A stretch of 64,000 bases of DNA, taken from the sequence record NC_005066.1, one strand, 5' to 3'. The notes beneath the pieces were generated by a model that worked only from the letters and a program-made list of their open reading frames with translations, did not search any database and had not been told where the DNA came from. Positions 2,814 through 22,872 of this stretch are shown piece by piece. How positions within the stretch are numbered: the first letter of the stretch is position 1; each line of letters opens with the position of its first letter. The translations under genes and the position numbers were made by a program. The DNA is from Escherichia phage RB49.

Positions 2814-3050
2814 ATGATTAGCTTTAAACGTTTTTTGGTTGAGGCCGCTATTGACGGTTTCATGAGTAAGATTTATTCTTGTAATACTATCGAGGGATTA
2901 AATGAACTTGAGGCATATTATGAGAAGCGCAAGAAAGAAACAGAATTGAAACCTGCTGATGATATTTCGATCCGTGATGCCATCGCTGGACGCCGTAAGC
3001 AATTGGAAGCGGACAACGAGCCAGAAGAGGAGCCGGAAGAGGATTTTTAA
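2814..3050 (+). CDS. uvsW.1: UvsW.1-like small acidic protein
   Basis: Track ORF 78 aa directly downstream of uvsW, as in T4. Confidence 0.6.
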   Translation: MISFKRFLVEAAIDGFMSKIYSCNTIEGLNELEAYYEKRKKETELKPADDISIRDAIAGRRKQLEADNEPEEEPEEDF

Positions 3051-3055
3051 GATAT

Positions 3056-3082
3056 AAAAAAGCCCCATCATTGATGGGGCAA
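3056..3082 (-). terminator. intrinsic terminator for minus-strand 26-25-uvsY transcripts
   Basis: Hairpin GCCCCATC/GATGGGGC followed by T6 on minus strand. Confidence 0.65.
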
Positions 3083-3113
3083 AATAAACCAATTAAAATC
3101 GGTTATCAACAAA

Positions 3114-3290
3114 TTACATTAACAGCATTGTTTGCTCTACGAGTTGTTCTTGTTCTTCGCCGTTCGCATCTTCACTAATCGAACGTTCTGTTACTAGCTG
3201 TAAGCAGTAGCCAGTATGAACAACGCCGTTTTCTGTCTGGACGGATAACGCATCCTCGACAGGTTGTTTACAACAAATACAGATTTTCAT
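3114..3290 (-). CDS. small Cys-containing protein (58 aa) in uvsY.-1 position
   Basis: Hand-found ORF below track cutoff: MKICICCKQPVEDALSVQTENGVVHTGYC...; AGGAGG RBS 6 nt upstream of ATG. Confidence 0.55.
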   Translation of the reverse strand: MKICICCKQPVEDALSVQTENGVVHTGYCLQLVTERSISEDANGEEQEQLVEQTMLLM

Positions 3291-11474: not shown

Positions 11475-12295
11475 TTAGTCACCTCACCGAAAATTGTAAA
11501 TTGTCTACGATTCTCATCGCCGAAAGATTCTACTACGTCGTTTACCTTGACGCAAGTCCCGCGCGGTAAAATTACTTCACATTCGCAAGGGTTCCATGCA
11601 ATGGACCCAACAACAAAACCTTTATGATCTTTTACGTCAATTACCCATGATACATTACAAGAATGTTGCATCTTTCCGGTCATTGATTCATATCGATTCT
11701 CACAATAAAGGCTAGTGCTGTTTGATAGCCATCCTCCAAAGATGATCGGTGTCATGCTGGTTGACACAAAGTTTTTAAAGGTAAATTCCTTATCTTCAAT
11801 AATACGCTCTATTGTCTGAATGTCAAGATGTTGACCGCGATAAAGAGTACCGTTTAACTTTTCGGTTTTATCCATGACGCAATCCATCAAATCAACAATC
11901 TCTGATATCTCATCGGTCATGTCTTCTTCCCCTAAGAGAGCACCATTTACCCATTCGTATTGCTCAGACACATAATCACAGATTGCATTATATTCTGCTG
12001 GTGTTATGTTGTTATGTTTGTAATGTTTGAATACATTATCTCCAAAGTCTTCGGAGTGTACTTCATACATCACATTAATGATTTTCTTGACAAATCCATA
12101 ATCTTGTGTCTCACGCTCAAGGAAGCGGATAACCTTCACATAATCATCAAAGTTAATCTGATCGCTGATCATCTCAGTGATCATGTAACCATTAATCCCC
12201 TCAATGTCATATGTTTCAATATAATTGTCCATACGTTCCATCATTGATTCGCGTGATTCTTCCGAAAGACGAAAATCCTGTAATTTCTTGAACAT
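11471..12295 (-). CDS. Alt-like ADP-ribosyltransferase paralog (274 aa)
   Basis: R-S-E triad motifs shared with adjacent Alt: LYRGQ, FKNFVSTSMTPIIFGGW, ECEVILPRG. Confidence 0.8.
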   Translation of the reverse strand: MFKKLQDFRLSEESRESMMERMDNYIETYDIEGINGYMITEMISDQINFDDYVKVIRFLERETQDYGFVKKIINVMYEVHSEDFGDNVFKHYKHNNITPAEYNAICDYVSEQYEWVNGALLGEEDMTDEISEIVDLMDCVMDKTEKLNGTLYRGQHLDIQTIERIIEDKEFTFKNFVSTSMTPIIFGGWLSNSTSLYCENRYESMTGKMQHSCNVSWVIDVKDHKGFVVGSIAWNPCECEVILPRGTCVKVNDVVESFGDENRRQFTIFGEVTK

Positions 12296-14703: not shown

Positions 14704-14774
14704 TTGATACTCCTTAGTAGTTCGTTTCGGTATGGGTGTATTATGATATACACCCTCTGTTATGTCAACAACTT
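14704..14774 (-). promoter_or_regulatory. PeSL-like early promoter cassette (-35 TTGACA, -10, 5' UTR with SD)
   Basis: Conserved tcgtttcggtatgggtgtattat...tgtcaacaactttt (plus-strand reading). Confidence 0.65.
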
Positions 14775-14954
14775 TTAGAACATTTTTGAAATTAATTCTG
14801 CTTTGATTTCGCAGAGAACATCTAAAGATTTCTCGTCACCTGCTTTTGCGGCTTCTGTTTGCATTTTTGAAATGGCTTCAATGTCAGTGCAATTATAAGC
14901 CGCTTGAACTTTAGCGATTGCGATGATTGCCGATTCGATGGTTAAGTGTTTCAT
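14775..14954 (-). CDS. small early protein (59 aa)
   Basis: Hand-translated ORF MKHLTIESAIIAIAKVQAAYNCTD... below track cutoff; preceded by PeSL. Confidence 0.5.
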   Translation of the reverse strand: MKHLTIESAIIAIAKVQAAYNCTDIEAISKMQTEAAKAGDEKSLDVLCEIKAELISKMF

Positions 14955-15022
14955 GTTTGATTCTCCTTTCGTTTCGGTATGGGTGCATTATAGGGGATCG
15001 GTGACCCCCTGTCAACAACTTT
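14955..15022 (-). promoter_or_regulatory. PeSL-like early promoter cassette with stem-loop
   Basis: gattctcc...gtttcggtatgggtgcattat AGGGGATCGGTGACCCCCT gtcaacaactttt. Confidence 0.65.
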
Positions 15023-15541
15023 TTAGTTATTTTTTAATTGTTCATCTTGCAATAATGCAATCACATGCTGGCGATGTTCTTCCGATTGAGACACACCGAA
15101 AAAGTTTGTTTTGTAGAAATACTCTAATCGGTCTTCTCGTGTGCTCTCTTCCATCATGATCGCGGGTAGTCCGAGATTTCGGAAACGTCGCTTTTCTGCT
15201 GGCGTAAAATCACTGTAATACAACATAGAATCATCATTACAAGCAATGCTAAACTCATCCTTCATAAAGGAGAATATTGCGTTTAAACGCTGTTTACCGT
15301 CCACGATTTCGATCTCATAGCGAGAGCCATCATCAATCTTAGCCATTGCGATAGCACCAACCGGAAAATCATTAATCAGGTTTTCGATAAACATACGTTT
15401 GTTTTCGGTGTCCCATACTAAAGGACGCTGATAATCTGGGTTCATGTTGATATAGCCATCTTCTAACCATGCTTCATAAACAGAGATAACAAAGTTTTTA
15501 GTATTGGTATAGTAACGGCGTTTAGGCGTTAAACGGTTCAT
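15023..15541 (-). CDS. DUF262 (ParB-like nuclease/NTPase domain) protein
   Basis: Motifs PDYQRPLVW, FPVGAIAM, VDGKQRLNAI; start placed at ATG with AGGAG RBS (track ORF begins at upstream TTG). Confidence 0.7.
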   Translation of the reverse strand: MNRLTPKRRYYTNTKNFVISVYEAWLEDGYINMNPDYQRPLVWDTENKRMFIENLINDFPVGAIAMAKIDDGSRYEIEIVDGKQRLNAIFSFMKDEFSIACNDDSMLYYSDFTPAEKRRFRNLGLPAIMMEESTREDRLEYFYKTNFFGVSQSEEHRQHVIALLQDEQLKNN

Positions 15542-15542
15542 G

Positions 15543-15872
15543 TTATAGTCTCCTGAATGGATCATCACGTAAATCAATATCTTTTAAGAACTCATCCCAT
15601 GAATGGCGGATATTGTTCTTAATTCTCCAGATAAGAGCAGGGATTGAACGCTCTCCCATCTGGAAGTATGGATCATATGATCCGTATGCCCAATATGCTA
15701 CTACAATTCCACAATCAGCGCAATAGTATTCTATTTCACTTGCTGGCGACCAAAGTCCATCAATATGATCGGTGATCTTGCTTTCGATGTTATGGCTATG
15801 ACAATCAGGGCAACGGATGCAATGACCTTGTTTATCGTAATTTGACGTTAGCGAATACTTAAACAATCTCAT
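15543..15872 (-). CDS. Zn-ribbon protein (109 aa)
   Basis: CIRCPDCHSH ... CADCG cysteine pairs; TAATG overlap with upstream gene. Confidence 0.6.
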   Translation of the reverse strand: MRLFKYSLTSNYDKQGHCIRCPDCHSHNIESKITDHIDGLWSPASEIEYYCADCGIVVAYWAYGSYDPYFQMGERSIPALIWRIKNNIRHSWDEFLKDIDLRDDPFRRL

Positions 15873-16588
15873 TATAGATCCTTATTTGCTTCAAATACTG
15901 CCTTTGCGAATCCTCGCGGGGTAAGTGACCTGATAGTCTTTGTTTTCGTTCCTTTCCCGCCTAGCTTAGAATGCTGTTTACTGTACCCTTTATTAATCTG
16001 CAAAGGTTTCTTTTCTGGCATTATAAAGCCTTGTCCGGTCCATAAGCAAGTCTTTTTCGGGTACATATCACGGGCGGCAATATACTCAGGAAAAGTAGGA
16101 TGTTTATCATCTTCCGGCAAATAACCGCCATATTCCCACGGATGGAACATATAATCAGGCTTACGCCACATGCTAGAGATAACGCTTACAGGATTCTCTA
16201 TCATGTAGGGAACTCCTATCCATTCACCCAAATAAGCGGTTATTTTAGCTGCCCTTACATCATGAACTTGAATCAATGGTCCTTGTTCTAGTTTCTTTCG
16301 TTCAAAGTGCGCAGCGCCACTAACAGCTAAATTGGTGCACGGTGGGAATGCAAAGATAATATCCGGTTTCCCCCATTCAAGGTCCATTGCTCTTTCCAGC
16401 CAGTTCAAATCAATCCAGGTGTTTACATAGGTAATGTTTGGATGTTCAAATCTGGTATTATATTTTTTGTATGTACCGTGGTCGCCATCGTCAGCATTAA
16501 AGCAGATCACCTTATGACCCGCTTTAGCCCATTCTAACCCCATTATCCCCGACCCGTCAAAGTTGCAGAATATTAATTTTTGTTTCAT
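15872..16588 (-). CDS. C5-cytosine DNA methyltransferase-like protein (238 aa, short)
   Basis: Motif I-like FCNFDGSGIMG..AG, motif IV-like FAFPPCTNLAVSGA, motif VI-like MIENPV. Confidence 0.55.
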   Translation of the reverse strand: MKQKLIFCNFDGSGIMGLEWAKAGHKVICFNADDGDHGTYKKYNTRFEHPNITYVNTWIDLNWLERAMDLEWGKPDIIFAFPPCTNLAVSGAAHFERKKLEQGPLIQVHDVRAAKITAYLGEWIGVPYMIENPVSVISSMWRKPDYMFHPWEYGGYLPEDDKHPTFPEYIAARDMYPKKTCLWTGQGFIMPEKKPLQINKGYSKQHSKLGGKGTKTKTIRSLTPRGFAKAVFEANKDL

Positions 16589-16830
16589 ATACGCCCCTTT
16601 AATCCAACACAGATTTTAGAAGGTTCTTTGCCGTGCCACATTAAGTAAAGTCCGTTAATGCGGCCTTGTTTTGTATATGATTCTTTTCTGATCTTCTTAT
16701 AGTGTCGTGTTTCCTCTACCGATTGTTTAGAATACCAATCATAAAGGAAGAGGAACAAAGGCCAACCATTAGCAACCTTAATGCAGTTATTCAAAAATTC
16801 CTTATTTCGTTTAATTAATTTTCTTTTCAC
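16585..16830 (-). CDS. small basic protein (81 aa), GTG start overlapping upstream stop
   Basis: Track ORF, 4-nt overlaps on both sides. Confidence 0.5.
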   Translation of the reverse strand: MKRKLIKRNKEFLNNCIKVANGWPLFLFLYDWYSKQSVEETRHYKKIRKESYTKQGRINGLYLMWHGKEPSKICVGLKGRI

Positions 16831-17078
16831 GCTGCCCCCATTGGTTTGATAGTAACAGAATCTAAAAGACCTTTGTTAGCCAGTTCGCGGCAAGTTTTCA
16901 GATCCGCAACTTCCCAGCCAGCCGCAATCAGGTTATCAATGAGGCTGTTAGCAACTTCTTCGCTCATGAAAGAGCACTGTTTGCCGATGGTGTAGCGTAC
17001 ACGCTGTAATTTCAGTTTACGGAAGCCTTTAACGTTCAGGTCTTTAGCGATTTTCTTTGCGGTTTCGATGTTAGCCAT
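16827..17078 (-). CDS. small protein (83 aa), first gene of 5-gene operon
   Basis: Track ORF, ATG preceded by PeSL with GGAG RBS. Confidence 0.6.
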   Translation of the reverse strand: MANIETAKKIAKDLNVKGFRKLKLQRVRYTIGKQCSFMSEEVANSLIDNLIAAGWEVADLKTCRELANKGLLDSVTIKPMGAA

Positions 17079-17158
17079 TGTTTGATTCTCCTAAGTGGTA
17101 TCTCGTCTTGATGGTTGTATTGTAGGGGAGTTATCCTCCCCTGTCAACACTTTTTATA
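17079..17158 (-). promoter_or_regulatory. PeSL-like early promoter cassette
   Basis: gattctcctaagtggtatctcgtcttgatgg...GGGGAGttatcCTCCCC tgtcaacac. Confidence 0.65.
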
Positions 17159-17161
17159 AAA

Positions 17162-17329
17162 TTATTTGTTAATTTCTGGTGCGTTGCTAGGATAGTAACC
17201 TTCTTTAACTCCGAGGTATTTCGCAACCATCCCTACAATCTTCTGTGCTACTACAATGTCAAATTTCAGATAATCTTCGCCGTGGGTTTCAACGATATAT
17301 GCTTCACATGCTGCTTTAGTCTCGAACAT
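17162..17329 (-). CDS. small protein (55 aa), paralog of 21488..21655
   Basis: MFETKAACEAYIVETHGEDYLKFDIVVAQKIVGMVAKYLGVKEGYYPSNAPEINK; ~85-90% nt identity to second copy. Confidence 0.65.
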   Translation of the reverse strand: MFETKAACEAYIVETHGEDYLKFDIVVAQKIVGMVAKYLGVKEGYYPSNAPEINK

Positions 17330-17400
17330 TTTGATTCTCCTATTTCGTTTCGGTATGTGTGTATTATAGGGGATCTCCCGATCCCCGTCAACAACTTTTT
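17330..17400 (-). promoter_or_regulatory. PeSL-like early promoter cassette
   Basis: ttgattctcc...tcgtttcggtatgtgtgtattat AGGGGATCtcccGATCCCC gtcaacaactttttt. Confidence 0.65.
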
Positions 17401-17404
17401 TAGA

Positions 17405-17881
17405 TTATTTGCACCACACTGTAATTTTCTTATCATGTTGGTAGTGAATCCATCGAATATCATCTTTATCAATCATGACAGTAACATACCCATTTACTAG
17501 TGATTTGTCAAAACGGTTATGTAACAGTGCAATATATTGAAAGAATGGTTCTTTTGTATTTGAATATATTCCCTTACCATCAAACGTCATGACATTTTTG
17601 TGAACTTTAAATTCATTACGAAGAACAGCCGTCATTGTCCCGTCTTCATTAGTTTTGAGTTTTAATTCGGATTCTTTGTAAAAATATGCGTCACGGGCTT
17701 TACTTTCTTCCCCGTCTTGTACTCTTACTTCACTAGCATAATCACACTGATAGGTCTTATCTACATTTTCGATCTTTTCTTGTGTCATATCAAAAAGCGG
17801 TGCGACCTTTTTCTTGGCCGCGTGTGCTACGTTGGTCATGGACAGTGCTGCAACAACCGCAATAGCAATAATCTTCTTCAT
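17405..17881 (-). CDS. secreted protein (158 aa) with signal peptide
   Basis: N-terminal MKKIIAIAVVAALSMTNVAHA signal sequence. Confidence 0.6.
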   Translation of the reverse strand: MKKIIAIAVVAALSMTNVAHAAKKKVAPLFDMTQEKIENVDKTYQCDYASEVRVQDGEESKARDAYFYKESELKLKTNEDGTMTAVLRNEFKVHKNVMTFDGKGIYSNTKEPFFQYIALLHNRFDKSLVNGYVTVMIDKDDIRWIHYQHDKKITVWCK

Positions 17882-17946
17882 AGTATTCTCCTTTTGTTTT
17901 GTGTTGGGAGTATCTTAGCGACACTCCCGTTATTTTTCAAATCTTT
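17882..17946 (-). promoter_or_regulatory. PeSL-like variant (stem-loop GGGAGTATCTTAGCGACACTCCC, no canonical TTGACA)
   Basis: SD-complement ggagaata plus hairpin in intergenic region. Confidence 0.35.
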
Positions 17947-18228
17947 TTATTCGTGATTAGTTTCGATGTTGTGCATTTTGCACCAGTTCAACCAATCGCC
18001 CAGATCTTGATAGTTGATGCTTTTATCTGCTGCCATCGTTTTTGTCTTGATACCCATATGTGCGTTATGAGTAAGCATTTTTACAGTGAACTCAATTTTA
18101 TCACCTTTAGCTTTAACATCAACCAGTTTGGTCCACTGGCTACCAGCGCCGCGAATGTTCATACCAACGATGTTTCCGATGTATGCTTCTTTGTTTTTCA
18201 GGATTTCGGTTGCTTTGATGAATTTCAT
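17947..18228 (-). CDS. small protein (93 aa)
   Basis: Track ORF preceded by PeSL. Confidence 0.55.
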   Translation of the reverse strand: MKFIKATEILKNKEAYIGNIVGMNIRGAGSQWTKLVDVKAKGDKIEFTVKMLTHNAHMGIKTKTMAADKSINYQDLGDWLNWCKMHNIETNHE

Positions 18229-18297
18229 TTTTGATTCTCCAGTTCGTTTCGGTATGGGTGTATTATGCTATGTTCTTACTTTGGTGTCAACAACTTT
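18229..18297 (-). promoter_or_regulatory. PeSL-like early promoter cassette
   Basis: tttgattctcc...gtttcggtatgggtgtattat...gtgtcaacaactttttt. Confidence 0.65.
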
Positions 18298-18567
18298 TTA
18301 GATATTTTCAGAAATAAATTTTAAAACTTGACGTAAATGTTTCTCATCTTTGATAGTCGCCGGAAGTTCTTCTTTTACTTCCTGTGCAAGATAGATATTT
18401 CCGTTCCAAGTGAAAGATCCGTCTTCGTTTACGCGATAGCTGAACATCCACTCGCAATCATTTTCGATTTCATATACACACAGAAGGGTGTAATCGTTAA
18501 AGCTAGTGATTTCAAGGTCGAAGCCGTGACGTTTTGCAAAGTTGGTAGTGGTTTTAGTCAGTGCCAT
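18298..18567 (-). CDS. small protein (89 aa)
   Basis: Track ORF preceded by PeSL. Confidence 0.55.
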   Translation of the reverse strand: MALTKTTTNFAKRHGFDLEITSFNDYTLLCVYEIENDCEWMFSYRVNEDGSFTWNGNIYLAQEVKEELPATIKDEKHLRQVLKFISENI

Positions 18568-18650
18568 TGTTTGATTCTCCTAAGTGGTATCTCGTCTTGA
18601 TGGGTGTATTATGCTATAGTCGTGATCTGGTGTCAACAACTTTTTTAAAT
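18568..18650 (-). promoter_or_regulatory. PeSL-like early promoter cassette
   Basis: Shares 31-nt gattctcctaagtggtatctcgtcttgatgg with cassette at 17079; tgtcaacaactttttt. Confidence 0.65.
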
Positions 18651-18658
18651 TTTTGGAA

Positions 18659-18689
18659 ATAAAAAAGCCGACACTAAGGTCGGCACATT
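18659..18689 (-). terminator. intrinsic terminator
   Basis: GCCGAC-actaag-GTCGGC hairpin; T6 on minus strand. Confidence 0.7.
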
Positions 18690-19001
18690 TTAAAAATTCT
18701 TGCTATATATGCAAGCCTCATAATCTAGAGGATGACCGCCAATCCTACCAGGCTTAATATTCCAACCGCATCGATATTTTCTGACCATGCTAACCGTTTC
18801 GGTTCTTAGAGCATTTCTTTGCAAATCATACCCCCTAAATTCTTGTCTATAAGGACAGTCCGCTTTGCAAGTTGGCGGTTCTACGTCATTTAGCGGGTCG
18901 GAAGCAGTTGGCTTTATTATCAATTCTTTGTTTGCAATAATCATAAGCACATCCCATTGAAGACAATTTAACATCTTCGCAATAAGTGTTGAATCCGTCA
19001 A
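18690..19001 (-). CDS. Cys-rich protein; overlaps upstream ORF by 116 nt, probably starts at internal ATG or is joined by frameshift
   Basis: Track ORF begins at TTG; internal ATGs at ~18974 and ~18944. Confidence 0.35.
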   Translation of the reverse strand: MTDSTLIAKMLNCLQWDVLMIIANKELIIKPTASDPLNDVEPPTCKADCPYRQEFRGYDLQRNALRTETVSMVRKYRCGWNIKPGRIGGHPLDYEACIYSKNF

Positions 19002-19077
19002 ATACGATCACTTCGTATTTGACTCCATCAGCGATAGCTTTTACTTTATACCATCCATGCTTGTATAAAATCTTCAT
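18886..19077 (-). CDS. small Cys-rich protein (63 aa)
   Basis: ATG with GAGGAAA RBS directly after PeSL. Confidence 0.5.
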   Translation of the reverse strand: MKILYKHGWYKVKAIADGVKYEVIVFDGFNTYCEDVKLSSMGCAYDYCKQRIDNKANCFRPAK

Positions 19078-19150
19078 CTTTATTTCCTCAATCTCGTTTC
19101 GATGGGTGTATTATGCTATAGGCTAGACCAGGTTGTCAACAACTTTTTTA
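19078..19150 (-). promoter_or_regulatory. PeSL-like early promoter cassette
   Basis: tcgtttcgatgggtgtattatgctat...ttgtcaacaactttttta. Confidence 0.65.
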
Positions 19151-19162
19151 ATTTTTTGGGAA

Positions 19163-19190
19163 ATAAAAAAGCCGACGCTAAGGTCGGCTA
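19163..19190 (-). terminator. intrinsic terminator
   Basis: GCCGACgctaagGTCGGC hairpin with T7 on minus strand. Confidence 0.7.
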
Positions 19191-19196
19191 ATAAAA

Positions 19197-19505
19197 TCAT
19201 TTGGACAAATAATCATTCTGTGCAATCCGGTCGGCGTATGCTGGTGTTATGTCAATCGCCAGCACTTTAACGCGTGCTTTCTTGCGACCTGGGTTTTCTC
19301 GTAACCAGTGCTCATGACCGTGAACATTTTTATACTTTGATGCTTCTTCAAATGTACGGATCGGACCTGGGTAATCAGCGTAAAGGATCTCTAGGTCTTC
19401 GGTGATGTAAAAATATACATCGTAATTACTGTTCTCTAGTTTAAGCAGAGAGTTGCGAAATTGTGGTAAATTCTCGCGGGTAAATTCAACTACAAGATTT
19501 TTCAT
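19197..19505 (-). CDS. H-x-H-W family small protein (member 1)
   Basis: HGHEHW ... VLAIDI motif shared with five neighbouring ORFs. Confidence 0.6.
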   Translation of the reverse strand: MKNLVVEFTRENLPQFRNSLLKLENSNYDVYFYITEDLEILYADYPGPIRTFEEASKYKNVHGHEHWLRENPGRKKARVKVLAIDITPAYADRIAQNDYLSK

Positions 19506-19529
19506 AGTGATATCCTCATTCAGATAGAT

Positions 19530-19552
19530 TAAAAGGGGCTTAACGCCCCCCG
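19530..19552 (-). terminator. intrinsic terminator
   Basis: GGGGC-ttaac-GCCCC hairpin followed by T4 on minus strand. Confidence 0.5.
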
Positions 19553-19556
19553 TATA

Positions 19557-19844
19557 TTAAAACAGTCCTTCCTGTACACCGTAGTAGAGTTCGTCACTGA
19601 TAATTTCATTAATGCGACGGTGTGCATATTCCTGATTTGCGAAGTTATCAGCAAGTTCTACTTTAGTTTCGCCGTCATGAGTCCATTTAGTGATAACTTT
19701 ACCATCTGCAAATTTGAAGTTGAACTCTTTAGCTACTGCATCGCGTACCAGACGTGCGAACTTGTTGTTACGGATGGCATTATCGGTTTCGTGTGCAGCG
19801 TGAGCGAATTTGTTAACTTTCAGAGTGATAGTAATGTATGCCAT
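19557..19844 (-). CDS. small protein (95 aa)
   Basis: Track ORF preceded by PeSL. Confidence 0.55.
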   Translation of the reverse strand: MAYITITLKVNKFAHAAHETDNAIRNNKFARLVRDAVAKEFNFKFADGKVITKWTHDGETKVELADNFANQEYAHRRINEIISDELYYGVQEGLF

Positions 19845-19925
19845 AATTTGATTCTCCTAGTTAGAAAGTGTATCTCGTTTCGATGGGGATATTATGCTAT
19901 ATCCCCGATCCGGTGTCAACACTTT
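19845..19925 (-). promoter_or_regulatory. PeSL-like early promoter cassette
   Basis: aatttgattctcc...tcgtttcgatggggatattat...GGGGATattatgctatATCCCC...gtgtcaacac. Confidence 0.65.
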
Positions 19926-20219
19926 TTATAAAATAATTTTTTGATATTTTTCTATGATGTTTGTGTAGGTCACGTCAACCGCTAGCACCGTTGCTTCGAA
20001 TCCACCGTTTAGCCAATGGCTATGATCATGATCGTGAAAGAAACCTAGACCAGTACGAAGACCTTCTTTATATTCTGCGCGTACATTCAGTTTGTCGTCG
20101 ATAAACAGATAAAACCATGAATTTTTACTAGGATTGATGATACAACCTTTCAGATTAGGAAGAATATCACGACTAAGAATAAACTTATCACCTACTTTGA
20201 ACATAATATTAGTCCTCAC
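19926..20219 (-). CDS. H-x-H-W family small protein (member 2)
   Basis: HDHDHSHW ... VLAVDV. Confidence 0.6.
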   Translation of the reverse strand: MRTNIMFKVGDKFILSRDILPNLKGCIINPSKNSWFYLFIDDKLNVRAEYKEGLRTGLGFFHDHDHSHWLNGGFEATVLAVDVTYTNIIEKYQKIIL

Positions 20220-20529
20220 TTATAAGGTCAAACCAATTGTTTTTCGCATAATGCTTAATGCGTGCTTGATCTGCTTCCGCTGGTGATAGATTCCATGCAA
20301 CCACTACAACTTCTGACGCATCGTCATCCGTTTCTGATACCCAATGATTGTGATTCATACAGTTATTTGCTATCGAGTGAGCAAATGATTTCATCACTGG
20401 AGACGTATAATCATAGTAACGGATTTTCAGATTTTCATCAACGTACAAGTAGATCGTATACGGCTTATATTCAGTAACCAGTAACAGACAGTTACGCAAT
20501 TCTGGGAAAATCTTTTTAGTTAATTTCAT
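20209..20529 (-). CDS. H-x-H-W family small protein (member 3)
   Basis: NHNHW motif; N-terminus parallels member 1; start at ATG with GAGGA RBS. Confidence 0.55.
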   Translation of the reverse strand: MKLTKKIFPELRNCLLLVTEYKPYTIYLYVDENLKIRYYDYTSPVMKSFAHSIANNCMNHNHWVSETDDDASEVVVVAWNLSPAEADQARIKHYAKNNWFDLISED

Positions 20530-20530
20530 T

Positions 20531-20749
20531 TTATAATCCTCGGTCTCGGCTATAGTACACGGTACGCCATACAATTTCATGTTTCGTGTCGCTCCAGCAC
20601 ACGATCTCATTTACTCTTAAATCTTTGTTATCAACAAAAGATGAACATTGTGACGCTTCTTTCATCATTTTATCTGCTGTTTTCTCATCAAATACAGCAC
20701 AGATTTCTTTATACACTCGATAATCTTTGAATTGACTCTGAATACCCAT
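20531..20749 (-). CDS. small protein, tandem paralog A (KMMKEASQC motif)
   Basis: FKDYRVYKEI...KMMKEASQCSSF parallels next ORF; start moved to internal ATG. Confidence 0.5.
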   Translation of the reverse strand: MGIQSQFKDYRVYKEICAVFDEKTADKMMKEASQCSSFVDNKDLRVNEIVCWSDTKHEIVWRTVYYSRDRGL

Positions 20750-20972
20750 AATTAACACCATTCCAACCAATTGTTTTTGAGAAAACGTTTATCCACTGTT
20801 GAGTGTAGCATGTTTCTTTCCATGATACAATACGAGTGGAATAATGGTTTTTGTTTCCAGAAAAGGACGGGCATTTTGATGCATCTTCCATCATCTTTTC
20901 GGCGAACTCTGGTGCGTATACTCGCAGGATCTGTTGATATGCTTTGTATTCTTTAAATTTGCTCATAATCAT
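20709..20972 (-). CDS. small protein, tandem paralog B (KMMEDASKC motif)
   Basis: KFKEYKAYQQIL...KMMEDASKCPSF. Confidence 0.5.
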   Translation of the reverse strand: MIMSKFKEYKAYQQILRVYAPEFAEKMMEDASKCPSFSGNKNHYSTRIVSWKETCYTQQWINVFSKTIGWNGVNYGYSESIQRLSSV

Positions 20973-21231
20973 TCACTACCTTATCAGCTTCTTTTGTTGT
21001 TTTTACATCAACTGCGATAACTCGTAAAGGTTCGTCATGGTTCCACCAGTGGTCATGAATATCAGCTTGTGATTTATCACCAAAGGAATCACGAATATCA
21101 TTTTTACATTTATAGCTAATGTGACCTTCATAGTCAACATAAAGGTAATTATCGAAAATCGGCGTTTTTAAGATCATACCGAAAAATCTTTCTTTGTGTG
21201 TCTTATCCAGCGTTGCAGTAATTCGCATCAT
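20953..21231 (-). CDS. H-x-H-W family small protein (member 4)
   Basis: DIHDHWW ... VIAVDV. Confidence 0.6.
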   Translation of the reverse strand: MMRITATLDKTHKERFFGMILKTPIFDNYLYVDYEGHISYKCKNDIRDSFGDKSQADIHDHWWNHDEPLRVIAVDVKTTKEADKVVNDYEQI

Positions 21232-21243
21232 AATATATTCCTC

Positions 21244-21423
21244 TTAGAAAGGGATGGTCATTTCTTGAGCTTGTACATTCTCGTTAGGATTAAACTTCAT
21301 CCAGCCGATATTGTCTACCAGCATATGCACATTTTTATCATATCCTACGTGAGTAGTCAACACTAAATGTGCTTTACCTTCAATGATGAGTTCCATGTAC
21401 TTCTGAACTTCGATAGCTTTCAT
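21244..21423 (-). CDS. small protein (59 aa)
   Basis: Hand-found ORF MKAIEVQKYMELIIEGKAHLVL... directly after PeSL. Confidence 0.5.
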   Translation of the reverse strand: MKAIEVQKYMELIIEGKAHLVLTTHVGYDKNVHMLVDNIGWMKFNPNENVQAQEMTIPF

Positions 21424-21487
21424 TTTGATTCTCCGTTTGTTGTCTTGATGGGAGTATCTTACTACTCCATTTAATCATTGTCAACTA
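21424..21487 (-). promoter_or_regulatory. PeSL-like early promoter cassette
   Basis: gattctccgtttgttgtcttgatgGGAGTAtcttacTACTCC...ttgtcaactat. Confidence 0.6.
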
Positions 21488-21655
21488 TTATTTGTTAATT
21501 TCTGGTGCGTTGCTCGGATAGTAACCTTCTTTAACACCTAGATATTTTGCAACCATTCCGGTGATCTTCTGTGCTACTACGATATCGAATTTCAGGTAGT
21601 CTTCACCGTGGTTTGCTACAATGTATGCTTCGCATTCTGCTTTAGTCTGGAACAT
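21488..21655 (-). CDS. small protein (55 aa), paralog of 17162..17329
   Basis: MFQTKAECEAYIVANHGEDYLKFDIVVAQKITGMVAKYLGVKEGYYPSNAPEINK; track ORF is extended into the PeSL. Confidence 0.65.
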   Translation of the reverse strand: MFQTKAECEAYIVANHGEDYLKFDIVVAQKITGMVAKYLGVKEGYYPSNAPEINK

Positions 21656-21723
21656 TTTTGATTCTCCTATATCTCGTTGGTATGTGTGCATTATAGGGGA
21701 TCACCGATCCCCTGTCAACAACT
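21656..21723 (-). promoter_or_regulatory. PeSL-like early promoter cassette
   Basis: tttgattctcc...AGGGGATCaccGATCCCCT gtcaacaacttt. Confidence 0.65.
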
Positions 21724-22017
21724 TTATAATGCTTTATATGCGTATTTCATAAATTTGTCTGCCACTTCATTGGCATGTTCAGATTCTACGCCTGATTCGA
21801 GAACAATAGCTAGGTCGGTTTCGTCATTCCCGCCGTACCAATGATTTGATGTTCGATTTTTTTCAATTGGAAATTGGTCACTTTTATCTGTGCGACAAAA
21901 TACATCTAAATGCTCGTCGATGTAAAAGATCCAATCTTCATAAAGAATAACGGTATTAGCAAGATTTTTATTGCCTTCAACGAAAGGTTCCGCGACAAAT
22001 AGCTTAGTTTGTTCCAT
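21724..22017 (-). CDS. H-x-H-W family small protein (member 5, divergent)
   Basis: NHWYGG...AIVLESG; start at ATG with GAGGAAA RBS. Confidence 0.5.
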   Translation of the reverse strand: MEQTKLFVAEPFVEGNKNLANTVILYEDWIFYIDEHLDVFCRTDKSDQFPIEKNRTSNHWYGGNDETDLAIVLESGVESEHANEVADKFMKYAYKAL

Positions 22018-22033
22018 AGTAATTTCCTCAAAA

Positions 22034-22225
22034 TTATACAGTTTCGTAAACTTCCCAATGTTCAGCGCCAACACGCTTAACGAAAAGGTTTTCTTTGATG
22101 TTATTCATAAACGTCTGGATGGATTTAATGCGGTTTGAAGGTTTCCATTCTTCGTTGGCATTGCGTCGATACATCATAACATTACCAGTTCGCTTATATT
22201 CAGCAACCATTTTAAGACCACACAT
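22034..22225 (-). CDS. small protein (63 aa)
   Basis: Track ORF, GAGGA RBS. Confidence 0.5.
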   Translation of the reverse strand: MCGLKMVAEYKRTGNVMMYRRNANEEWKPSNRIKSIQTFMNNIKENLFVKRVGAEHWEVYETV

Positions 22226-22282: not shown

Positions 22283-22603
22283 TCACACAAAATGGCGTGT
22301 CAATGCTTCTTTTGCGGTTCCGCTAAGACTTTCAATCTCGCCTGGCATAACATCAACCGCCAGAACTTCTACAACATCCTCGGACCCTAACCAGTGAGTA
22401 TGGCCTTTGTAGAACTTGATAACCAGACCACCTTCCTCGTCCCATTTAACGCTATCGCTAGCCCACCACACATCACCGTCGATAAAGTTGATGTAAAGCA
22501 CACTACGCCACATTGAATTAATTACTTTCAATACTGCGCCTTTCATCTCTTCCACGGTATGGTCTTCCATTTTGAAGACCTCACCTACCTGAACTTTTGC
22601 CAT
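22283..22603 (-). CDS. H-x-H-W family small protein (member 6)
   Basis: GHTHWLGSEDVVEVLAVDV. Confidence 0.6.
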   Translation of the reverse strand: MAKVQVGEVFKMEDHTVEEMKGAVLKVINSMWRSVLYINFIDGDVWWASDSVKWDEEGGLVIKFYKGHTHWLGSEDVVEVLAVDVMPGEIESLSGTAKEALTRHFV

Positions 22604-22800: not shown

Positions 22801-22872
22801 AATTGATTCTCCTAGTTCGTTTCGGTATGTGTGTAGTATAGGGGATCGGTGATCCCCTGTCAACAACTTTTT
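22801..22872 (-). promoter_or_regulatory. PeSL-like early promoter cassette
   Basis: aattgattctcc...tcgtttcggtatgtgtgtagtat AGGGGATCggtGATCCCCT gtcaacaactttttt. Confidence 0.65.

Follow-up and report, generated by a model that had tools for sequence, protein, structure and literature searches.

A small early gene is present twice in the hyperplastic region of the window, the 64,000-nucleotide stretch of record NC_005066.1 analysed here, which belongs to a member of Krischvirus (RB49/phi1/JSE group), a genus of T4-type coliphages. The two open reading frames (ORFs), referred to as copy A and copy B throughout (Table 1), each stand behind a promoter-early stem-loop (PeSL) cassette of their own. 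The initial annotation was right to describe a diverged duplicate in a PeSL-rich hyperplastic region. We conclude that the copies are probably in-genome paralogues that arose by duplication of a PeSL module, were kept since and are still recombining with each other. Both lie between DNA ligase/HNH and alt, where every gene is on the minus strand.

Table 1. Coordinates of the two copies, their flanking cassettes and the block that separates them.
Feature	Coordinates	Strand	Description
Copy A	17162..17329	-	55-residue early ORFan = phi1 ORF191; PHROG 8009 (E=5e-38); 98% identical to phi1/RB49/JSE ORF191 orthologues
Copy B	21488..21655	-	55-residue early ORFan = phi1 ORF205; PHROG 8009
PeSL upstream of copy A (PeSL192/191)	17330..17404	-	-35 TTGACG 17391-17386; hairpin GGGGATC-GGGA-GATCCCC 17386-17369; -10 TATAAT 17368-17363; then Shine-Dalgarno GGAG
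PeSL downstream of copy A (PeSL191/190)	17079..17161	-	Promoter of next gene; 3′ limit of repeat unit; folding z=-3.7
PeSL upstream of copy B (PeSL206/205)	21656..21723	-	-35 TTGACA 21718-21713; hairpin GGGGATC-GGT-GATCCCC 21712-21696; -10 TATAAT 21695-21690; then Shine-Dalgarno
PeSL downstream of copy B (PeSL205/204)	21424..21487	-	3′ limit of repeat unit
Block between copies	17330..21487	-	Holds about a dozen ORFans; Cognac and FL04 lack it together with one repeat unit, 4326 bp in all (blastn collinearity, annotation tables)

Two diverged copies of one gene are maintained across most of the genus
The proteins encoded by copies A and B are identical at 50 of 55 residues (91%; BLASTP E=9e-38), which confirms the near-identity first noticed, and their coding sequences (CDSs) at 144 of 168 nucleotides (85.7%). 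At the codon level, the 24 nucleotide differences produce 17 changes that are synonymous only and five that replace an amino acid (E3Q, A7E, E14A, T15N and V32T). By tblastn the window holds exactly these two copies and no third. The true start of copy B is at 21655, which has a Shine-Dalgarno (SD) sequence; the program-listed ORF start at 21691 falls within the -10 box. Both proteins match the hidden Markov model of PHROG 8009 over its full length (E=4.9e-38 and 1.2e-38, residues 1-55 against profile positions 1-55), a family that itself bears no functional annotation. A match to phrog_485 was marginal (E=0.008), and searches of Pfam, NCBIfam and PDB sequences with the 55-residue protein gave zero matches.

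Matches to window positions 16800-22100 at 80-99% identity came from 57 phage records, nearly all of them Escherichia/Shigella Krischvirus. Copy number was surveyed by tblastn against 50,697 phage records. Two copies are present in 50 of the 57 Krischvirus records, in which a few phages are counted by both their GenBank and RefSeq entries, and one copy in the other seven. Alleles were compared for 24 copies from 15 genomes (the window and 14 relatives); an IMG/VR scan gave only two loci, and the comparative set was therefore drawn from 12 INPHARED records. All 24 copies are intact.

Comparison of A with B by the Nei-Gojobori method gave a synonymous divergence (dS) of 0.93 and a nonsynonymous divergence (dN) of 0.047, for a ratio (omega) of 0.05. 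Orthologues differ by ~4-5 nucleotides, while A and B inside one genome differ by 18-26 nucleotides across the 15 genomes. On these substitution patterns the split is shown to be old, with both copies held under strong purifying selection ever since. The divergence claimed initially has to be qualified accordingly: it is old, it has proceeded under strong constraint, and it has not been independent, since tracts have been swapped between the copies (see below).

Relatives outside Krischvirus are few. In tblastn searches we found seven siphovirus records (Swiduovirus swi2, Salmonella SeSz-2 and others) with 70-72% amino acid identity. Six clusters make up the gene family in 5.8e9 proteins. A profile search run exhaustively over 1.84e9 representatives yielded just seven hits, which were tiny phage-like proteins, apparent chimeras and low-complexity matches in long proteins. 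Within the limits set by a length of 55 residues and by sampling, nothing in the 50,697 phage records or the 5.8e9 proteins is closer to either copy than the other copy is. The swi2 gene is 66% identical to A and 67% to B at the nucleotide level, and the gene on a metagenome contig (L003) is 75% and 72% identical, respectively. Since these outgroups are equidistant from both copies, A and B form sister lineages. A derived C-terminal ...GMVAKYLGVKEGYYPSNAPEINK is common to A and B. The PEINK tail at the C-terminus is missing from the siphovirus members, and the outgroup genes (swi2 and contig L003) lack an upstream PeSL. Together, these comparisons show A and B to be true paralogues as judged at the sequence level, and their sister relationship favours a duplication that would have occurred in the Krischvirus stem lineage.

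Two further observations concern the wider family. The siphovirus homologues (swi2, at 3001-3156 of locus L002, and SeSz-2; 70-74% amino acid identity) adjoin terminase/portal genes in unrelated phages and have no PeSL, which points to transfer of this tiny gene between phage families. Two metagenome proteins, P0006 and P0009, begin with the copy-B N-terminus and continue into unrelated sequence, of 52 residues in P0006 and 22 in P0009. One of the genes lies at 1165-1398 of a Logan contig (L004, from SRR21034874), and P0006 starts at an upstream in-frame ATG inside the -10 box. P0006 and P0009 may be chimeras of assembly, or they may represent additional recombinant alleles.

Each copy is a putative PeSL module
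PeSLs were defined in RB49/phi1-type phages by Arbiol 2010 (PMC2839356). Our first search pattern for them was too strict and missed cassettes with CATAAT or TAAGAT -10 boxes, and a TTGAC...SD...ATG pattern was used instead. The cassette of copy A has the layout AAAAAGTTG-TTGACG-[GGGGATC GGGA GATCCCC]-TATAAT...GGAGAATCAAA-ATG. Its promoter (17391-17363, TTGACG-17-TATAAT) matches the sigma-70 consensus at 11 of 12 positions, and that of copy B (21718-21690, TTGACA-17-TATAAT) matches perfectly, at 12 of 12. In both, the AT-rich tract AAAAAGTTG lies upstream of the -35 hexamer, the hairpin GGGGATC...GATCCCC is placed between the -35 and -10 hexamers, and GGAGAATCAAA and the ATG follow. The 7-bp G+C stem is present in the minimum free energy and centroid structures, with modest z-scores for the whole 75-nucleotide cassettes (-1.5). 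Both cassettes therefore have the sigma-70-like hexamers, the stem-loop within the promoter and the intergenic position upstream of an ORFan with a Shine-Dalgarno sequence that characterize PeSLs, and their behavior as recombination sites is indicated by the comparisons described below and by the published RB49 mini-circle.

The PeSL of the next gene begins straight after the TAA of each copy. In its layout each copy is an autonomous module: a PeSL (an early promoter of the sigma-70 type, predicted to be strong, within which a stem-loop may attenuate read-through from upstream), a Shine-Dalgarno sequence and a CDS, up to the AT-rich start of the following PeSL. Published measurements come from phi1. 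Its PeSL206/205, the positional counterpart of the cassette upstream of copy B, was a very strong promoter when cloned (~13,000 Miller units), and the stem-loop of another phi1 cassette, PeSL211/210, terminated transcription (PMC2839356). The stem-loop of phi1 PeSL206/205 is oriented opposite to that in the window.

The PeSL hairpin exists in two mirror orientations. The copy-B PeSL of the window (21712-21696) carries GGGGATCGGTGATCCCC, and its exact reverse complement, GGGGATCACCGATCCCC, is found at the copy-B PeSL site of phi1, RB49, SAP and GEC-3S. The reverse-complement hairpin GGGGATCACCGATCCCC also occurs in the window PeSLs at 22863 (22857-22841) and at 15015 (15009-14993; GGGGGTCACC... 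there). This suggests that the stem-loop flips, by hairpin inversion or template switching, or is swapped between PeSLs.

Pair-specific homology is limited to the coding sequence
In pairwise alignment, similarity between A and B begins around the -35 region and stops one base beyond the stop codon (TAAT), a span of ~240-245 bp with none outside. The alignment with flanks thus delimits the unit and places homology in the coding region; the outcome that would have undone the initial proposal, similarity confined to the PeSL, was not what we found. The quoted nucleotide identity of 85-90% including the upstream cassette is also numerically correct, at 85.7% for the CDS and 88% for PeSL-A against PeSL-B. 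The cassette part of that figure has no diagnostic value, however, as PeSL-A is equally close to the PeSLs at 22863 (88%) and 15015 (86%), which serve unrelated genes. The 5′ untranslated region (UTR) of copy A (CCGAAACGAAATAGG) is nearer to the UTR at 22863 than to that of copy B (CCAACGAGATATAGG), and the PeSLs downstream of A and of B have no pair-specific similarity.

The cassettes are 88% identical, while the proportion of synonymous differences (pS) between the genes is 0.53. Since the resemblance of the cassettes so far exceeds that of the synonymous sites, it is attributed to constraint or to homogenization among PeSLs, and not to co-duplication. What is specific to the pair is only the CDS, from ATG to TAA(T). 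PeSL identity was accordingly rejected as a sign of co-duplication, given that the PeSLs of unrelated genes are just as similar. The assertion that the pair is direct evidence of cassette-associated duplication is overstated, and the initial interpretation holds only in part: support for cassette-mediated recombination comes from relatives (hybrid single copies, chimeric PeSLs and conversion tracts) and from published mini-circle experiments. Segmental duplication was likewise rejected, as the genes adjoining A and the genes adjoining B show no mutual paralogy.

Mosaic alleles point to exchange between the copies
Relatives of the window carry alleles in which the diagnostic states of the two copies are mixed. 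The B copies of Brandy and PTE-Eco09 have A states at six consecutive diagnostic sites (nucleotides 50-74); the chance that six switched sites among 24 would be contiguous is 1.4e-4. In the A copy of PTE-Eco09 the -35 and stem-loop are of A type, the -10-proximal region and 5′UTR are of B type, and CDS sites 6, 19 and 23 show B states; the encoded protein is a chimera, MFQTKAECEAYIIET...IVG. B states at 3′ sites (104-119) are present in the A copies of RB49, SAP and MIZ6 and in the single Cognac copy, while an A state occurs at site 6 in the RB49 B copy and at site 43 in the phi1 and ECD7 B copies. By their pattern, these mosaic alleles are apparent ectopic gene-conversion tracts, some of which extend across the PeSL/CDS boundary.

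Recombination at the repeats and at PeSLs removes genes
Cognac and FL04 have one copy each, placed between the homologue of ORF206, which is normally upstream of B, and ORF190, which is normally downstream of A. By blastn both genomes are collinear with the window from 232xx to 21487 and from 17398/17400 to 15830, with matches that overlap by the ~240-bp unit. In Cognac the B PeSL and B 5′UTR are joined to an A-type CDS, with the crossover within GGAGAATCAAAATGTTC (SD/ATG). The FL04 junction joins TTGACAGGGGATC (B) to a GGGAG loop, the A UTR and the A CDS, with the crossover inside the stem-loop. The flanking haplotypes differ as well (RB49-like versus phi1-like ORF206 3′ ends). Given the different junctions and flanking haplotypes, the Cognac and FL04 deletions are two independent events. 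The longest identical runs between the repeats in the window are 17-28 nucleotides.

A second type of rearrangement affects copy A by itself. Brandy and JK32 lack copy A and ORF192, and ORF193 is followed directly by ORF190 via a chimeric PeSL. PeSL193/191 supplies the 5′ half of this PeSL (TTGACGGGGATCGGGAGATCCCC...ACACACAT), and the UTR of PeSL191/190 supplies the 3′ half (CAAGACGAGATAC...GGAGAATCAAACA). If a PeSL mini-circle is excised or inserted, this is the junction to be expected. A mini-circle of RB49 (‘band H’) holds ORFs 191-194, copy A included, and results from a crossover of PeSL190/191 with PeSL194/195 (Arbiol 2010, PMC2839356). Other losses in the region follow the same lines: MIZ4 is missing the stretch equivalent to window 14745-17946, with a PeSL junction, and PTE-Eco09 is missing ORFs 206-209 upstream of B in a deletion bounded by PeSLs. 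The A-B spacing ranges from 3.26 to 4.33 kb among phages as modules come and go in between, and an IMG/VR contig (L013) has only a B-type copy in the fetched locus.

The gene next to copy A varies among phages. In the window, 17405-17881 on the minus strand encodes a 158-residue protein with a signal-peptide-like N-terminus, between copy A and the ORF193 homologue. RB49 has ORFan192, the mini-circle ORFan of Arbiol et al., at that position, and phi1 has no ORFan192. MIZ6 has a 474-nucleotide gene in the same place and JSE an apparently unrelated gene of 312 nucleotides. In MIZ4 (11687-11765), the PeSL that follows ORF193 is a copy-B-type promoter and stem-loop (TTGACAGGGGATCGGTGATCCCCTATAATGCACACATACC) fused to the UTR of PeSL186/185, from which it follows that PeSL halves are themselves reassorted between sites.

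Origin of the second copy
We propose that, in an ancestor older than the sampled genus, recombination between the PeSLs on either side of one module released it as a PeSL mini-circle. Homologous recombination with a second PeSL a few kb off, the one between ORF193 and ORF190, would then have returned the mini-circle to the genome, and the outcome would be a dispersed direct repeat. The ~240-bp repeats are still substrates for the very active homologous recombination of the phage, with three consequences. Short non-reciprocal tracts are copied between the loci, also across the PeSL/CDS boundary, as the mosaic alleles show. Crossovers of A with B remove a ~4.3-kb block and leave one hybrid copy, an event seen twice, in Cognac and FL04. 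Finally, PeSL-by-PeSL crossovers take out or insert copy A alone, as the chimeric PeSL of Brandy and JK32 indicates.

Several points weigh against this proposal. The duplication event itself is unobserved and its direction is not polarizable: the empty A site in Brandy and JK32 is compatible with the ancestral state and with secondary loss alike, and Brandy's A-type tract is compatible with either polarity, as PTE-Eco09 has the same B allele and spread by ordinary recombination is possible. Pair-specific PeSL sequence is absent, and the DNA gives no sign of a PeSL that moved along with the gene. A mini-circle with ORF205 alone or ORF191 alone has not been reported. Exchange between co-infecting phages looks like intragenomic conversion, and a second copy imported from an unsampled, ~15%-diverged relative would look identical to one made in the genome.

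This last scenario is the most serious competitor, though we consider it unlikely. One copy would be a xenologue: a diverged allele of the ORFan would have arrived from an unsampled T4-like phage during co-infection, with an encapsidated PeSL mini-circle as one possible vehicle, and would have entered a second PeSL. A dS of ~0.93 between the copies, at least 5x the orthologue diversity in the genus, requires a very old split or a diverged donor; PeSL mini-circles have been reported to be encapsidated and have been proposed as vectors of horizontal gene transfer; and the family does cross phage families, as swi2 and SeSz-2 attest with their 70-72% amino acid identity. The donor lineage, however, was not seen among the 50,697 phage records and 5.8e9 proteins, where A and B are mutual closest relatives, and both copies share the derived C-terminal ...GMVAKYLGVKEGYYPSNAPEINK and are equidistant from the outgroups.

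We regard a tandem origin as improbable. Unequal crossover between adjacent PeSLs in replicating concatemers could have produced neighboring copies, with about a dozen modules inserted between them later, and both the variable A-B spacing and the tandem paralogue pairs elsewhere in the window (20709-20972/20531-20761, 40%; 34131-34304/33964-34131, 38%) fit such a history. It requires, though, many independent insertions into the single PeSL between the copies, the neighbors of A and those of B have no collinear paralogy, and the clean presence or absence of a single module at the A site, with a chimeric PeSL, suits direct insertion or excision better. Finally, we give virtually no weight to the idea that the similarity is only that of a shared PeSL, for which generic similarity among PeSLs is all that speaks, or is an assembly artefact from a mis-placed repeat, given 85.7% nucleotide and 91% amino acid identity in the CDS with mostly synonymous changes, the different flanks, and the same two-copy layout in 50 of 57 Krischvirus records.

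Relation to known PeSL modules
Duplication of a PeSL module within the genome, with continued recombination between its copies, fits the published model of PeSL mini-circles and recombination, and the A/B findings are unsurprising outcomes of known mechanisms. The pair belongs to a class already known, that of PeSL-flanked ORFan modules, and occurs in the phages from which that class was first described; it brings to light no new mechanism, nor any function. The modules described in RB49 and phi1 (Arbiol 2010, PMC2839356; Comeau et al. 2014, PMC4122927) are of the same genus, the same hyperplastic region and the same loci (A = ORF191, B = ORF205); indel junctions between relatives are located at PeSLs there too, as published for ORF192, and PeSL206/205 is a promoter that has been tested. 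The published papers concern exchange between otherwise unrelated genes via PeSLs, whereas here the CDS adds ~170 bp of homology, and crossovers and conversion tracts also fall within or across coding sequence. The paralogy of ORF191 and ORF205, the conversion tracts and the two repeat-mediated deletions go unmentioned in the main text of PMC2839356 and PMC4122927, and our literature search for these three subjects found no other paper.

Direct-repeat deletion and ectopic gene conversion between dispersed paralogues are features of general homologous recombination, such as the UvsX/UvsY-dependent pathway of T4. The events at this locus resemble those of general direct-repeat recombination, with a hybrid single copy and loss of exactly one unit plus the spacer in Cognac and FL04, and with mosaic tracts between 85%-identical repeats. 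We find no mechanistic difference; the repeats are short (~240 bp) and diverged, yet have recombined repeatedly.

PeSL-mediated modular shuffling is the established model of accessory-gene variation in T4-type phages. This locus adds the case of one PeSL module carried twice per genome, with consequences that can be read in natural isolates: long retention of both copies under purifying selection, tracts across the promoter/CDS boundary and two independent deletions of about a dozen genes. The repeats (~240 bp, ~85% identity, 4.3 kb apart) also provide an easily assayed natural substrate with which ectopic recombination and the re-integration of mini-circles could be quantified in a T4-like phage. 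A more ambitious, and in our view doubtful, interpretation is that the two copies are retained as functionally distinct variants, with conversion and deletion end-points as selected properties that generate chimeric host-targeting alleles and toggle the 4-kb block. If that were true, the locus would be a small recombination-driven system for producing chimeric early-protein alleles and toggling an accessory block within phage populations.

As for what the 55-residue protein does, we speculate, from the strong immediate-early promoter, small size and phage-restricted distribution, that it might be a host-directed binding or take-over factor. Against this, the database searches were empty, and the AlphaFold2 model, built from a six-sequence alignment, is poor (pLDDT, the predicted local distance difference test score, 61.7) and too simple to sustain a fold comparison. 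It places two helices (residues 5-16 and 18-39) ahead of a disordered tail, YYPSNAPEINK, and the five fixed residue differences between A and B would map onto the two predicted helices.

Other repeated sequences in the region
The Pfam scan of ten genes in and flanking the inter-copy block gave no matches. Around and between the copies are six ORFans of ~100 residues on the minus strand (19197-19505, 19926-20204, 20209-20529, 20953-21231, 21724-22032 and 22283-22603) that make up a very diverged paralogue family (17-32% identity), in which H-W is invariant and a ...V-L-A-V-D-V... block is shared towards the C-terminus. A Pfam scan of this family was also empty, and only one pair is significant by BLASTP (E=3e-13). 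Adjacent paralogue pairs with 37-40% amino acid identity, again on the minus strand, are found at 20531-20761/20709-20972 (which overlap by ~50 nucleotides), 33964-34131/34131-34304 and 55890-56213/56328-56660. The other paralogue pairs in the window, at 28-40% identity, are much older than A/B. Old serial duplications seem common in the hyperplastic region.

A composite of an intrinsic terminator and a PeSL is also repeated, with 84% identity, at 18560-18700 and 19070-19205 on the minus strand. The unit reads GCCGACCTTAG(T/C)GTCGGC-TTTTTTATTT, followed by AAAAAAGTTGTTGACA...CATAAT, and its two occurrences precede two unrelated genes. A classical terminator hairpin with a T-run can thus travel alongside a PeSL that lacks a G/C stem in its own spacer.

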